Below the pieces are notes generated by a model. The model was not told the DNA's origin. It worked only from the letters and a program-made list of their open reading frames with translations, and made no database searches. Below, piece after piece: positions 32,668 through 50,409 of a stretch of DNA of 56,341 nucleotides. The DNA lies in contig JBDRFR010000061.1 in NCBI GenBank assembly GCA_043818675.1, forward strand, positions 1-56,341, written 5' to 3'. Made by a program: the position numbers and the translations under genes. Every line of letters starts with the position of its first letter. The first letter of the stretch is position 1. The stretch comes from Nanobdellota archaeon (lineage in GTDB: Archaea; Nanobdellota; Nanobdellia; Woesearchaeales; DATDXC01).

Positions 32668-33003
32668 ATGAAAAAAGCGCAATTGTCAAACCCGAGATTG
32701 GGAATGGTCGTAATACTACTAGTCATCTGTATAGTGATGATAGCGTTTACAACTTCAAAAGTTTATATGGCGACGGGCAATGCGGCATGCTTTCTTCCGT
32801 TAACAAACATCACGCTTTTTGATAATGCAACAAAGGAGATACAGGATATCAATATTGGAGATGAGGTGTTATCTTATGATTTTGAAAATGAACAGAATGT
32901 TAAAGTTGAGGTTATGAATGTTTTTTCACACCAAGAAAACAGGTATATGATAATTAATGGCAATATGAAAGTTACGCCAAACCATATGGTGTATGCAAAA
33001 TGA
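32668..33003 (+). CDS. Pilin-like leader + 28-aa linker + N-terminal split Hint/intein half (111 aa)
   Basis: MKKAQLSNPRLGMVVILLVICIVMIAF...ATGNAA is followed by CFLPLTNITLFDNATKEIQDINIGDEVLSYDF...NMKVTPNHMVYAK-stop. Intein block A (Cys1) and block B (TPNH) are present and blocks F/G are absent. Confidence 0.8.
   Translation: MKKAQLSNPRLGMVVILLVICIVMIAFTTSKVYMATGNAACFLPLTNITLFDNATKEIQDINIGDEVLSYDFENEQNVKVEVMNVFSHQENRYMIINGNMKVTPNHMVYAK
32788..33000 (+). other. Split Hint/intein N-half IntN1 (71 aa)
   Basis: It starts at TGC 32788 (Cys1) and contains the TxxH motif TPNH. It ends at the gene stop, at the position where the contiguous copy (34475..34861) continues with EGQWVPIG. Confidence 0.8.
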
Positions 33004-33941
33004 ACAATACAGCATACCTAACAAATCTGAATGCAGGACTTTGGTTAATAGTCATTATTACATGTATAGTGATGGTTGGATTTATCGGTTCGAAAAAATC
33101 GGTGAATCTAATATCTGTGAATTCAGGAATTGAAGGGATAAGCGGGAATGTAATCCAAACCAACCAAGAAGGTATTAGTAATCAAGAATATGTTGCAAAG
33201 AACTCAGACCAGATAACTACAATAGCTAATAGCCATAATGTACCTCCTGCTGAACTTGCAGCAATAATTATTGCAGAAAGAAATCCTACTGGCCCGCAAT
33301 CGCATGATACCGGAACAAACTTAGGAGTAACCGCAATGAGTGTTAGTCAAGCAAAAACATATAGTGGTGCTGCTGGAATGACTGATCAGGCAATTGCGAA
33401 TAAATTACAAAATGATGATAATTTTGCGATAGAAGCTACCGCTAGTAGAATGGCGTATATACGCAGTCTTAATAGCTATGATAAGTATTATTCAGACCCT
33501 AGAATATCAGGAGATCCAGTAAAGACAGGACAATTAACATTAGCTATATGGCGTGGAGATATTAATGGAGCACGAGAGGAAAATTTTAATAGGATAGTTA
33601 ATGGAAAATTTGCGGAAATGTATACTAGTGGTCAAGCAACAAATCATCTCTCCGAACAAGCTGCTGAAAACAGAGTTGATTCGTTCAATCGTGCAAGAGA
33701 GGCTATTGGAAGCGATGAATCAGCAGCGTGCTTCCTTCCGTCCACTCAAATAACATTATCTGATGGATATAAAGAAATTCAAGATGTAAAAGTTGGAGAT
33801 CAAGTATTATCATATGATCTTGACAATAAGCAAAATGTTAAGGCTGAGGTTGTGAATGTTTTTTCGCATAAAGAAAACAAGTATATGATAATAAATGGCA
33901 ATATGAAAGTTACGCCAAACCATATAGTTTACGCAAAATGA
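33000..33941 (+). CDS. Membrane-anchored lysozyme/lytic-transglycosylase-like protein ending in an N-terminal split Hint/intein half (313 aa)
   Basis: TM helix LWLIVIITCIVMVGFIG. Candidate SLT-like region at aa 72-160 (PPAELAAIIIAERNP...TNLGVTAMSVSQAKTY...NDDNFAIEATASRMAYIRSL). The C-terminal 70 aa are CFLPSTQITLSDGYKEIQDVKVGDQVLSYDL...VTPNHIVYAK-stop. Confidence 0.75.
   Translation: MNNTAYLTNLNAGLWLIVIITCIVMVGFIGSKKSVNLISVNSGIEGISGNVIQTNQEGISNQEYVAKNSDQITTIANSHNVPPAELAAIIIAERNPTGPQSHDTGTNLGVTAMSVSQAKTYSGAAGMTDQAIANKLQNDDNFAIEATASRMAYIRSLNSYDKYYSDPRISGDPVKTGQLTLAIWRGDINGAREENFNRIVNGKFAEMYTSGQATNHLSEQAAENRVDSFNRAREAIGSDESAACFLPSTQITLSDGYKEIQDVKVGDQVLSYDLDNKQNVKAEVVNVFSHKENKYMIINGNMKVTPNHIVYAK
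33729..33938 (+). other. Split Hint/intein N-half IntN2 (70 aa)
   Basis: Cys1 at 33729 and a TPNH motif. It is about 90 percent identical at nucleotide level to the 3' part of IntN1 and ends at the gene stop. Confidence 0.8.
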
Positions 33942-48671: not shown

Positions 48672-49486
48672 AAAAAATTATTCTTGTGCTAATAGTTATA
48701 TTGTTTTTGGCAGGGTTTAGAACAAACGACTGGGAATGGGTGCAAGTTGGTGAACTAAAAGCAGGGGACTCATTAATGGATAAAGATGGAAATAAGATTG
48801 AAATAGAATCTATTGAAAAGGTTTTTGTACCAGAAGGTGTTAATGTTTATGATCTGGAAATTAAAGATTATCATTATTATTTTGCTGAGGATGTGCTAGT
48901 GCATAACAGCGGCAAAAAGGTAATTGTTATCGATCCAGGGCATGGAGGAAAGGATCCAGGGGCTGTAAAAGATGATATCATGGAAAAAGACATTAACCTG
49001 ATGATGGCAAAAAAACTTAATGAAAAGCTAAAAGACAGATATATAGTCTATCTTACAAGAGATACTGACATGTACTTAACCATAGATGAAAGGGCTGATA
49101 TTGCAGAATCAAAAAAAGCAGACCTGTTCTTAAGCATACATGGCAATGCTTATCAGATTGACAGCACAATGTCGGGTGTGGAGATATACAAGTATATACG
49201 ATGTTACGGCGATGAGGAAGAGGTATGCACCAAAAATGAAATCGCAGAGATAGAAGATAAGATGATTGAAAAGCTTGTTAAAAGATTCACTGATAAAGGA
49301 TTTAGCATACATAAAGTTGCAGTAGCGCCTTTTTGGGTATTATACTATGCATCGGCAACAGATGACATCCCCTCTCTCTTAATAGAGCTGGGCTTTATTA
49401 CAAATACAGAGGATCTTGCTAAACTGAAGATTGATGCAGGGTACACAGATGCTATAACTGCTGCAATAGATGAATATTTCAGATGA
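48668..49486 (+). CDS. Leader + C-terminal split Hint/intein half + N-acetylmuramoyl-L-alanine amidase (Amidase_3) cargo
   Basis: MKKIILVLIVILFLAGFRTND is followed by WEWVQVGELKAGDSLMDKDGNKIEIESIEKVFVPEGVNVYDLEIKDYHYYFAEDVLVHN|S. The cargo then reads GKKVIVIDPGHGGKDPGAV...EKDINLMMAKKL...YLTRDTD...ADLFLSIHGNA (Amidase_3 Zn-ligand pattern H, E, H). Confidence 0.85.
   Translation: MKKIILVLIVILFLAGFRTNDWEWVQVGELKAGDSLMDKDGNKIEIESIEKVFVPEGVNVYDLEIKDYHYYFAEDVLVHNSGKKVIVIDPGHGGKDPGAVKDDIMEKDINLMMAKKLNEKLKDRYIVYLTRDTDMYLTIDERADIAESKKADLFLSIHGNAYQIDSTMSGVEIYKYIRCYGDEEEVCTKNEIAEIEDKMIEKLVKRFTDKGFSIHKVAVAPFWVLYYASATDDIPSLLIELGFITNTEDLAKLKIDAGYTDAITAAIDEYFR
48731..48907 (+). other. Split Hint/intein C-half IntC2 (59 aa, +1 Ser)
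   Basis: Blocks F and G (VYDLEIKDYHYYFA, LVHN), then AGC Ser at 48908-48910. Confidence 0.8.
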
Positions 49487-50409
49487 AAAAAATAATGATT
49501 GTACTAATGCTTGTAATATTTCTAGCTGCTAATACCAATGCATGGGAATGGGTGCAGATAGGAGAACTGAAACCTGGTGATTCTTTAATGGATAAAGATG
49601 GAAATGAGATTATCATTAATTCTATTGAAGAGGTTAGAGACGCCAATGGAGTAATGGTATACGATCTTGAAATTAAAGATTATCATTATTATTTTGCTGA
49701 GGATGTGTTGGTGCATAATAGTCAGATCGAATCCCCTGTAGATAAATGGAAGCGGCTGATTAGAGAGTATAATGCAATGCCAATTGGATATCCATCTGAT
49801 GCAAAGTTAAATGAAATAAAAGAATATGAAAAAAACACAGCTGAAATACAAGCAATTCTTAAACAATGGAGCGATTCGGTAAAAGCAGAAGTTAATACTC
49901 TTTTGACATCAAGTGGTATACATCCTGGGGGGATGATTGCAGTAAAAAAGGAAGTATACATGGAAGATGGTAAGTATATACCTCCATACGTATTAATTGA
50001 GATTCAGGATGGTGAGTATGAGGTGGCGGGCATTTTATTTGAGTACAAAAGAGATATTCAGCAGCGGCAAATATATTTAAGTATTCCAAAGCAGTGGAAT
50101 GAGCTTAAGCGAATAGCAGAGTCAGCTACTTATTCTTATACCAGTACAACAGACCTAATAAACAGTCATAAATTAATGGGACTAAAAAAGATGACAGAAT
50201 TAAAAACTGAAGTCACTAAATCAGGATACTGTTACTTAAAAATTGTTGATTCATATAGAGAGCCAAATCTTCGGCCGGATGGGCTCCATTATGCAGATGA
50301 GGATGCCTATAATAATTGCAAAGGAAAATTTACACCCATACCGCAACCATCACCGCCAAGATTTAGTTTAATAAACTGGCTTAAAGATATATTTTCAGGT
50401 GAAGCATAG
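49483..50409 (+). CDS. Leader + C-terminal split Hint/intein half + unknown 229-aa cargo
   Basis: MKKIMIVLMLVIFLAANTNA is followed by WEWVQIGELKPGDSLMDKDGNEIIINSIEEVRDANGVMVYDLEIKDYHYYFAEDVLVHN|S, then QIESPVDKWKRLIREYN... I recognise no family for the cargo. Confidence 0.8.
   Translation: MKKIMIVLMLVIFLAANTNAWEWVQIGELKPGDSLMDKDGNEIIINSIEEVRDANGVMVYDLEIKDYHYYFAEDVLVHNSQIESPVDKWKRLIREYNAMPIGYPSDAKLNEIKEYEKNTAEIQAILKQWSDSVKAEVNTLLTSSGIHPGGMIAVKKEVYMEDGKYIPPYVLIEIQDGEYEVAGILFEYKRDIQQRQIYLSIPKQWNELKRIAESATYSYTSTTDLINSHKLMGLKKMTELKTEVTKSGYCYLKIVDSYREPNLRPDGLHYADEDAYNNCKGKFTPIPQPSPPRFSLINWLKDIFSGEA
49543..49719 (+). other. Split Hint/intein C-half IntC3 (59 aa, +1 Ser)
   Basis: Its 3' part is over 90 percent identical at nucleotide level to IntC2. 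LVHN is followed by AGT Ser at 49720-49722. Confidence 0.8.

Follow-up and report, generated by a model that had tools for sequence, protein, structure and literature searches.

We analysed a stretch of 56,341 nucleotides (nt) from a Nanobdellota archaeon (contig JBDRFR010000061.1, assembly GCA_043818675.1), called the window in the following, which carries six halves of a split Hint domain, each placed at a terminus of a gene for an exported protein. Three genes, the handles A, B and F, end in an N-half (IntN). Three others, the cargoes C, G and H, start with a leader followed directly by a C-half (IntC), and one contiguous Hint domain lies inside gene C. A six-frame scan with hidden Markov models (HMMs) gave these totals for the 56 kb, three N-halves, three C-halves and one contiguous Hint, and no further half was found anywhere in the window. 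The six halves at gene termini had been described in an earlier note on this DNA, and open reading frames (ORFs), translations, alignment and the raw sequence reproduced them at the following positions:

32668..33003, plus strand: gene A, 111 amino acids (aa), with a 40-aa N-extein (MKKAQ..., one hydrophobic helix, short linker) and IntN1
32788-33000, plus strand: IntN1, the end of gene A, CFLPLT...VTPNHMVYAK and stop
33000..33941, plus strand: gene B, 313 aa, with an N-terminal hydrophobic anchor, a 243-aa N-extein and IntN2
33729-33938, plus strand: IntN2, the end of gene B, CFLPST...VTPNHIVYAK and stop
33938..36235, plus strand: gene C, 765 aa, with the leader MKKIISILMIVLLASFASA, IntC1, a 100-aa spacer, the contiguous Hint and a 457-aa C-terminal domain
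33995-34171, plus strand: IntC1, in gene C directly behind the Sec-type leader, ending VHN-Ser
34475-34861, plus strand: contiguous Hint inside gene C, Cys1...TPDH...VHN-Glu
38952..45818, plus strand: gene F, 2288 aa, a Cys-rich giant surface protein with a Sec leader, fn3/Big_13 domains and IntN3
45594-45815, plus strand: IntN3, the end of gene F, CFLPQT...VTPYHYVYAKRNR and stop, the tail being written ...TPYHYVYAKRNR
48668..49486, plus strand: gene G, 272 aa, with a leader, IntC2 and an Amidase_3 domain (N-acetylmuramoyl-L-alanine amidase; E 4e-40)
48731-48907, plus strand: IntC2, in gene G, VHN-Ser, matching PT-HINT 73-136/137 (E 7e-9)
49483..50409, plus strand: gene H, 308 aa, with a leader, IntC3 and a 229-aa domain
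49543-49719, plus strand: IntC3, in gene H, VHN-Ser

All three N-halves start with Cys1 and carry block B as TPNH or TPYH, as the earlier note had it. Only their common end point, given there as ...VYAK, needs correction: IntN3 ends ...VYAKRNR and stop, three residues (RNR) beyond VYAK. Genes C, G and H start with MKK, a hydrophobic stretch of 15-18 residues and a c-region of small residues, after which the C-half follows at once; the position directly behind a hydrophobic leader and the closing VHN-Ser were confirmed by translation in all three. The C-half consensus was W(N/E)WV(P/Q)(I/V)G...VYDLE(V/I)KDYHYY(Y/F)A...(L)VHN-S, with VYDLE..YHYY and VHN followed by Ser in 3/3. The set of residues for class-1 splicing is complete in the halves (Cys1, TxxH, block-F Asp and His, HN, Ser+1). 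They align end to end with contiguous copies, and the break falls between blocks B and F, the canonical site. The contiguous Hint of gene C aligns with IntN and then IntC, ungapped save at the junction (YAK and stop vs YIEGQ). The claimed retention of all splicing residues therefore stands for the halves and not for the contiguous copy, whose +1 residue is Glu, i.e., no +1 nucleophile.

Profile searches against Pfam, proposed as a check of the halves, agreed with the split. The N-halves matched only the N-terminal part of the Hint model (positions 9-88/213; E 8e-8, which is IntN1, 7e-7 and 2e-5). The C-halves matched C-terminal parts only, of PT-HINT (73-136/137; E 7e-9 and 4e-7) or of Intein_splicing (119-155/155; E 1e-10), the latter being the documented match of IntC1 and stronger than its PT-HINT match. 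The ratio of nonsynonymous to synonymous substitution rates (dN/dS) was 0.08-0.34 for every pair of halves with a computable (unsaturated) dS, and within the window 0.14 for N1/N2 and 0.13 for C2/C3. The halves are under purifying selection.

The note had spoken of Hint/intein halves; profile, Pfam and fold place the domain more closely. The best match of the domain profile in the PDB was 2lwy, a bacterial-intein-like (BIL) domain of C. thermocellum (1.3e-26), followed by Tetrahymena BUBL1 BIL2, with classical inteins far lower. PT-HINT (PF07591) scored 96.2 bits with the contiguous copy, which spans the full model, 36.5 bits with C2 and 30.9 bits with C3, at a cutoff (gathering score) of 27.7 bits. 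By sequence profile and modelled fold, the Hint domain family is the BIL-A/PT-HINT branch and not the classical intein. The host proteins of all copies have leaders or anchors, and their exteins vary among relatives.

IntN3 and IntC2 were modelled as one covalent chain, guided by an alignment of 48 contiguous homologues. The fused model reached a predicted local distance difference test (pLDDT) of 97.6 and a predicted template modelling score (pTM) of 0.90. Its best fold matches in Foldseek were the BIL structures 6y75 and 2lwy (TMq 0.88); inteins (mini-inteins and, in fused form, the natural split inteins gp41-1, NrdJ-1 and NpuDnaE) gave TMq 0.69-0.80, and Hedgehog ~0.7-0.8. The model is consistent with the halves forming a single, complete HINT fold of the BIL-A/PT-HINT branch. 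The structural check thus came out in favor of a complete fold for a single chain; association of two chains lies outside what this model addresses.

With respect to pairing, the earlier note had held that the halves outnumber any one-to-one pairing and that 3 x 3 products are conceivable. There are three N-halves and three C-halves, and similarity and gene order point to fewer products. N1 and N2 are 76% identical, each ~60% to N3, and C2 and C3 are 81% identical, each 67-70% to C1. Genes A and B adjoin C, and F is nearest to G and H. In relatives, N3-type N-halves (TPYH.VYAKR..) occur together with C2/C3-type C-halves (YYFAEDVLVHNS in P0007; P and L numbers denote related proteins and loci). 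Because half similarity, gene position and co-occurrence in relatives agree, these few sequences suggest two orthogonal groups, {N1,N2}+C1 and N3+{C2,C3}, with about four products, not nine.

The split recurs in relatives. A leader+IntC profile was searched by HMMER against 1.84 billion representatives, exhaustively. A leader directly before the C-half was found also in P0007, P0009, P0010, P0020 and P0057 and in several short or degenerate proteins; P0009, from a Nanoarchaeota metagenome-assembled genome (MAG), consists of leader, IntC and an SLT transglycosylase. More than 10 independent proteins have a signal peptide exactly before IntC. At L001/L002, a 351-aa exported protein ends ...VTPYHYVYAKRKE and stop, with an ATGA overlap with a 41-aa leader+IntC stub; behind the stub follow an NTP_transf_2 and HEPN-like pair and then the full leader+IntC+cargo gene P0007. 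The downstream order in L001 is as in the window (D-like, E-like with E 2e-80, and an F-like giant found by tblastn), which makes the locus syntenic. At L005/L004, from one sample, the order is ...VTPYHHVYAKRENG and stop, a leader+IntC stub of 86 aa, an AlbA_2 gene and P0010. P0016/L023 has a contiguous Hint plus a C-terminal IntN ending ...YVYAKRKDKE; about 50 nt 3' of this IntN a new leader ORF starts with MKTTISTLIIALMLLT, and the contig ends just after. P0169 and P0173 stop at the same site (...HYVYA(K/R)R..). The shared stop site (...TPxHxVYAK(R..)) was seen in independent metagenomes from JGI, ENA and Logan. The IntN-stop/leader-IntC arrangement, which the earlier note expected to see again if real, is therefore present in related genomes, and the breaks are not specific to one strain.

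The tail of the split N-halves reads YAK(R..), whereas contiguous relatives have (F/Y)INGEW at that position. This distinct tail argues that the split form is a stable lineage and not a series of repeated nonsense mutations. The contiguous relatives P0003, P0021, P0023 and P0030 consist of a pilin-like signal, an N-extein, a Hint (C1...TPYH...HN-S) and a large C-extein, with a deviating block B (TPSQ) in P0003. The C-terminal domain of P0030 belongs to the cargo family of gene C, P0007 and P0010, so split and contiguous proteins appear as alternative forms of the same handle-Hint-cargo proteins. Clearly degenerate relatives occur as well (P0036, P0060, P0088 and the 41-aa and 86-aa stubs).

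Other searches returned less. Locus scans of genomes and metagenomes with an IntC alignment from the window only found nothing, the patterns being too specific. A scan of metagenome contigs for IntN gave mostly contiguous Hints or inteins of 33-47% identity, and a second genome scan gave only the Nanoarchaeota MAG contig again and one distant gammaproteobacterial match. Word-indexed homologue searches were near empty, and the IntN profile retrieved fragments and small stand-alone Hints. More distant relatives (P0005, P0011, P0034, P0039, P0146 and others) carry 3-8 contiguous Hints in tandem, head to tail (...VHNKGGGCF...), with a Lys, no nucleophile, after each Hint.

For the 150 best relatives, with the proteins of the window itself left out, we recorded the residue after the terminal His-Asn. 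A +1 Ser was found in 12/16 leader-borne C-halves vs 11/212 contiguous Hints (Fisher p = 7e-11, the sequences being phylogenetically non-independent). Lys stood at +1 in 129/212 contiguous relatives and in 3/16 leader-borne C-halves. A second split class, with a leader, a block-B strand (LKVTxEHPF) and then the C-half, had the +1 Ser in 6/8 cases (p = 2e-7 vs the remaining contiguous domains). BIL domains are typically without a +1 nucleophile and mainly give cleavage products, and one mutation makes a BIL domain an efficient splicer (PMC7664689); a 2013 study on protein trans-splicing by a BIL domain appears there as ref. 16. A naturally split BIL-type domain with a +1 Ser is, judged by its residues, just what a ligating version should look like. 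By the same reasoning the contiguous Hint of gene C, with its Glu, is predicted to be able only to cleave. Gene C would then combine a ligating N-terminal C-half with an internal self-cleaving Hint, and the latter could later free the 457-aa C-terminal domain.

Orthologues of gene F in other DPANN archaea lack a Hint half and have other C-terminal domains instead: a trypsin-like peptidase in P0152, and in P0153, P0155 and P0156 other regions without a Hint match, Ig-like by eye. Because orthologous giants differ in their C-termini and one carries a fused enzyme there, the C-terminus of gene F seems a natural place to attach effectors. For the N-extein of gene B, called lysozyme-like before, no Pfam family matched, lysozyme or other, and its match with the N-extein of P0003 was not significant (E 0.12). 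The label "pilin-like" for gene A comes from a by-eye reading of the N-terminal KKAQ...hydrophobic motif only. The start of gene A (MKKAQLSNPRLG; 32654-32703) has an upstream duplicate at 32542-32591, 112 nt away and 76% identical, which encodes MKKAKLSNPKEG... without the hydrophobic segment and may be what is left of a former anchor gene.

Peptidoglycan hydrolases are among the cargoes (Amidase_3 in G, SLT in P0009), in agreement with reports of an abundance of these enzymes in Nanoarchaeota (PMC12352652). The C-terminal domain of gene C is common to P0007, P0010 and P0030 (E 2e-10 vs the P0007 C-domain; partly by motif inspection). For the 229-aa domain of gene H, homologue and Pfam searches detected no relatives, and the whole gene H retrieved only P0003.

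We consider it on balance probable, from sequence and modelling, that cargoes exported on their own are joined to anchored or giant surface proteins by protein trans-splicing outside the cytoplasm. Each handle would be exported with a 71-74-aa N-half at its very C-terminus: A as a membrane anchor only, B as a 243-aa protein with an anchor, and F as a giant surface protein of 2214 aa. The cargoes, namely the multidomain protein of gene C, the peptidoglycan amidase of G and the 229-aa domain of H, would be exported separately via a cleavable Sec leader, after whose removal the mature protein would begin with the 59-aa C-half. The halves would then come together extracellularly as a complete HINT fold. 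A thioester at Cys1 would be attacked by the +1 Ser of the cargo, and Asn cyclisation would free the Hint and leave the cargo peptide-bonded to the C-terminus of the handle. Predicted junction peptides are ...DCTTTPA-SGKKVIVIDPGHGGK and ...GSDESAA-SQTDLTFGG. Since both partners have export signals and the leader lies exactly at the start of IntC, separate export, leader removal, association outside and trans-splicing would be the most economical course. Contiguous handle-Hint-cargo genes, still present in relatives, are the probable source of the split state. A further step is possible and we propose it tentatively, as the less likely part of this account: DPANN archaea would use families of such exported split domains as a ligase that removes itself, and any of several secreted effector cassettes (cell-wall hydrolases and other domains) would be bonded onto any compatible handle, be it a membrane stub, a pilin-like protein or a giant adhesin, as a post-translational, combinatorial form of the cassette switching of polymorphic toxins.

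Several observations weigh against extracytoplasmic trans-splicing. The fused, homologue-guided model speaks for fold compatibility and not for association of two chains, and a single-sequence AlphaFold2 model of IntN2+IntC1 was uninformative (pLDDT 38). Both halves are acidic (net charge -8 to -10 for IntC and 0 to -5 for IntN), so electrostatic capture of the DnaE type is absent, except for a short basic tail on some IntN. Leader cleavage is read by eye from n-h-c/AxA patterns, and the IntC2 leader (...GFRTND before W) has a poor -1 residue. Cys1 would have to remain reduced extracellularly, where the Cys-rich giant probably forms disulfides. The five closest contiguous relatives also have a +1 Ser, and the enrichment is thus partly shared ancestry. 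Finally, no intein-less joined homologue of any specific handle and cargo pair was found, and the exteins are non-conserved surface proteins, where a split intein would be looked for at a conserved site of a conserved host protein.

The alternative that survives best, which we nevertheless regard as rather unlikely, is docking and/or cleavage without ligation. The halves would form the HINT fold and tether the cargo non-covalently, or set off autocleavage at the N- or C-terminus; a cargo could, e.g., be freed by IntN-dependent Asn cyclisation from an uncleaved leader that serves as membrane anchor. This would be in line with a BIL/PT-HINT family whose members mostly cleave (PMC7664689), with the +1 Glu of the contiguous Hint in gene C, suited to cleavage only, and with the Lys in three of the 16 leader-borne C-halves. 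However, a +1 Ser is needed for ligation only and is enriched in two split classes, the full set of splicing residues is kept under purifying selection, and cutting a 71-aa IntN from the C-terminus of a handle has no obvious use.

It is improbable, in our view, that the cassettes act at the DNA level only, with leader+IntC+cargo genes as spares and the Hint halves as homology handles for rebuilding contiguous genes, and no role for the protein. DNA rearrangement does take place in these loci. The truncated stubs beside inserts in L001 (41 aa) and L005 (86 aa) show recombination or insertion there, and contiguous relatives exist. In L024 (1-8157; JGI 3300032342) lies a four-gene array of the second split class, with a leader, then SQLKVTSEHPF..., then the C-half, i.e., a break upstream of block B. 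Its constant leader+IntC regions are 87-89% identical, with identical runs of 69-75 nt, its C-termini are variable, and small unrelated variable genes lie between the cassettes. This layout bears out the likeness to polymorphic-toxin cassette arrays seen in the earlier note; an N-piece matching this class (ending before block B) was not found. However, a separate start codon and a conserved Sec-type leader, useless to an untranslated spare, are present in every C-half gene, and the IntN genes share a conserved stop site and tail (YAK or YAKR..) across several organisms. The window halves share identical DNA runs of 39 nt (C2/C3) and otherwise at most 13 nt, at 66-80% identity, a poor substrate for homologous recombination, and the IntN and IntC segments, being without overlap, cannot recombine with each other. 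The dN/dS values also argue for a role of the protein. DNA-level turnover of cassettes and joining at the protein level are probably both in play.

Just as improbable is trans-splicing in the cytoplasm before export, in which leader and IntC would be excised and the joined protein would leave via the signal of the handle. Known natural split inteins are all cytoplasmic (PMC2677866), and the ATGA overlaps at A/B and B/C would bring nascent chains close. A conserved signal peptide exactly before IntC in more than 10 proteins would, however, be pointless or harmful, and the handles also carry N-terminal signals or anchors, which makes co-translational export probable. Decay or artefact, i.e., nonsense mutations, assembly errors or dying remains of once-contiguous Hints, is effectively refuted despite the clearly degenerate relatives, since three N-halves in a single contig share the codon position of their stop, this stop recurs in the independent JGI, ENA and Logan metagenomes, every C-half has acquired a leader, dN/dS is low (0.08-0.34) and the split is kept in a syntenic locus.

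Two translational routes were considered and rejected. An alternative code or stop read-through does not apply, as the 2288-aa ORF without TGA shows that TGA is a stop, and the downstream genes are in another frame. A programmed frameshift joining the halves does not apply either: A/B has the same ATGA and leads into a non-Hint gene, and no C-half adjoins IntN3.

The proposed trans-splicing system resembles several known ones in part. With BIL type A/PT-HINT domains (2lwy; T. thermophila BUBL1 BIL2, 6y75/6tmm) it shares sequence, Pfam family, fold, Cys1, the C-terminal His-Asn and the location in variable, non-conserved exported proteins, not conserved enzymes. Known BIL domains are contiguous, usually without a +1 nucleophile, and mainly autocleave (PMC7664689), whereas here the domain is split, with an export signal for each half, a +1 Ser and a DPANN host. 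Of the seven copies in the window, six are halves at the ends of genes; the contiguous cleaving type is represented by the internal copy of gene C (HN-Glu) alone. With natural split inteins (cyanobacterial DnaE; N. equitans PolB; gp41-1, NrdJ-1, IMPDH-1) the halves share the break site, the two-gene arrangement and the class-1 residues. Those inteins rebuild one conserved cytoplasmic enzyme of DNA metabolism in a strict 1:1 pairing, whereas here the exteins are unrelated exported surface proteins and each locus has several halves. Fractured genes (Dassa et al. 2009; PMC2677866) are similar in that a selfish gene stands between split-intein halves; there it is a free-standing homing endonuclease and the interrupted protein is a conserved enzyme, whereas here, in several loci, the insert is of the AlbA_2, MNT/HEPN or AbiE type and the exteins are no conserved enzymes.

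Polymorphic toxins with a pre-toxin HINT (Zhang, Aravind; MafB, Rhs/teneurin-type) have in common with this system a large exported carrier, variable C-terminal enzymatic modules and a HINT at the junction, as well as tandem C-terminal modules (G and H; L024) and cell-wall hydrolases as cargo (Amidase_3, SLT). Their HINT is contiguous and releases the toxin by cleavage, and their spares are swapped as DNA; here the genes are complete and leader-bearing, and it is the junction domain that is split. No cognate immunity genes are apparent here: only paralogous multi-pass membrane proteins follow C and H, unlike polymorphic immunity. Sortase or archaeosortase anchoring resembles the proposed reaction as a covalent attachment to a surface anchor after secretion, and differs in chemistry and ancestry; here no separate enzyme would act and the module would remove itself. 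Engineered ligation at surfaces by split inteins or SpyTag (e.g., PMC12321220) has the same outcome as proposed here and is man-made. Reviews describe BIL domains only as contiguous (PMC7664689) and natural split inteins only in cytoplasmic enzymes (PMC2677866). Our full-text literature search, with subscription papers mostly outside it, found no natural split Hint, BIL or intein on exported proteins, and none in DPANN archaea. Split inteins, BIL domains and artificial BIL trans-splicing are already known; what would be new here is a natural, exported, multi-partner split BIL with a +1 Ser.

Natural split inteins are viewed as relics of selfish elements. If the proposed joining takes place with several partners, cells would have taken up trans-splicing as a means of assembling surface proteins, and this would be the first case of natural split inteins that act extracytoplasmically and with two or more partners for one half. 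It could account for the way in which DPANN archaea, with reduced genomes and dependent on a host, equip giant adhesins with peptidoglycan hydrolases, and would connect the biology of BIL/PT-HINT domains with ligation, not cleavage alone. Small split pairs that evolved for extracellular use after Sec export would also be available for protein engineering. The sequences are short and directly testable in vitro.

The window is chromosomal, carrying genes for MetRS and GuaA, and the host is a DPANN archaeon of the Nanoarchaeota/Woesearchaeales type. Homologues of gene F are named Candidatus Nanoarchaeia, Nanoarchaeota or Woesearchaeota archaeon by their sources. Genes A-F are co-directional and closely packed, with ATGA overlaps at A/B (TGA stop of A and ATG of B), B/C (stop of B and ATG of C) and E/F. 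G and H overlap one another, and the start of G also overlaps the preceding AlbA_2 gene. Large Cys-rich exported proteins and proteins with pilin-type-looking signals are encoded in the locus. Scans of the window for tRNA and Rfam families gave no matches. The neighbouring genes and the insert between the genes of IntN3 and IntC2 are the following:

36235..36915, plus strand: gene D, 226 aa, a multi-pass membrane protein directly after the cargo gene C
37036..38955, plus strand: gene E, 639 aa, with a class-III (archaeal pilin-type) looking signal, MKRGQITIFIIMGLVI, judged by eye
45842..48671, plus strand: insert between the IntN3 and IntC2 genes, with a 57-aa helix-turn-helix-like ORF and two paralogous genes
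46012-47358 and 47343-48671, plus strand: the two paralogues, with SLFN_AlbA_2, HATPase_c_4 and wHTH domains, the latter gene overlapping the start of gene G by 4 nt
50498..51313, plus strand: paralogue of gene D, 271 aa, a multi-pass membrane protein after the cargo genes G and H

Gene D is a weak paralogue of the 50498-51313 protein (E 6e-5), and a D-like gene stands at the equivalent place in the syntenic L001 (8737-9240; E 2e-11). Searches placed neither of the two proteins in a known family; they may be helpers in assembly or export, or immunity proteins. Gene E is kept beside the giant gene in L001 (30% identity, E 2e-80).

A selfish or defence-type module was found directly 5' of the leader+IntC gene in 4/4 loci with upstream sequence, often overlapping its start. 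Besides the AlbA_2 pair of the window these were:

L001, 2294-3228: an NTP_transf_2 (MNT) and HEPN-like pair upstream of leader+IntC
L003, 195-1669: an AbiEii gene and its partner upstream of leader+IntC
L005, 667-906, and L004, 2-208: an AlbA_2 gene upstream of leader+IntC

In L001 and L005 the truncated leader+IntC duplicate (41 and 86 aa) borders the insert on its far side. Among the genes between halves, no endonuclease family was detected. These positions suggest that selfish or defence modules travel with, or insert beside, the cargo cassettes.

Over their first 300 nt, the two AlbA_2 genes of the window show 94% identity, which suggests a recent duplication or gene conversion. The first of them contains a 12-nt tandem repeat, GGTCGGTGAAAA, in four copies (47121-47183), which encodes (VGEK)n. 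Another NTP_transf_2 and HEPN pair lies elsewhere in the window, at 6467-7493. The stretch 18586-25167 encodes a Bro-N protein (19168-20013), an integrase-SAM-like/TPR protein (20371-21777), a methyltransferase and, on the minus strand, an IS200-type Y1 transposase (24787-25167); this mobile and defence stretch may be an integrated element.

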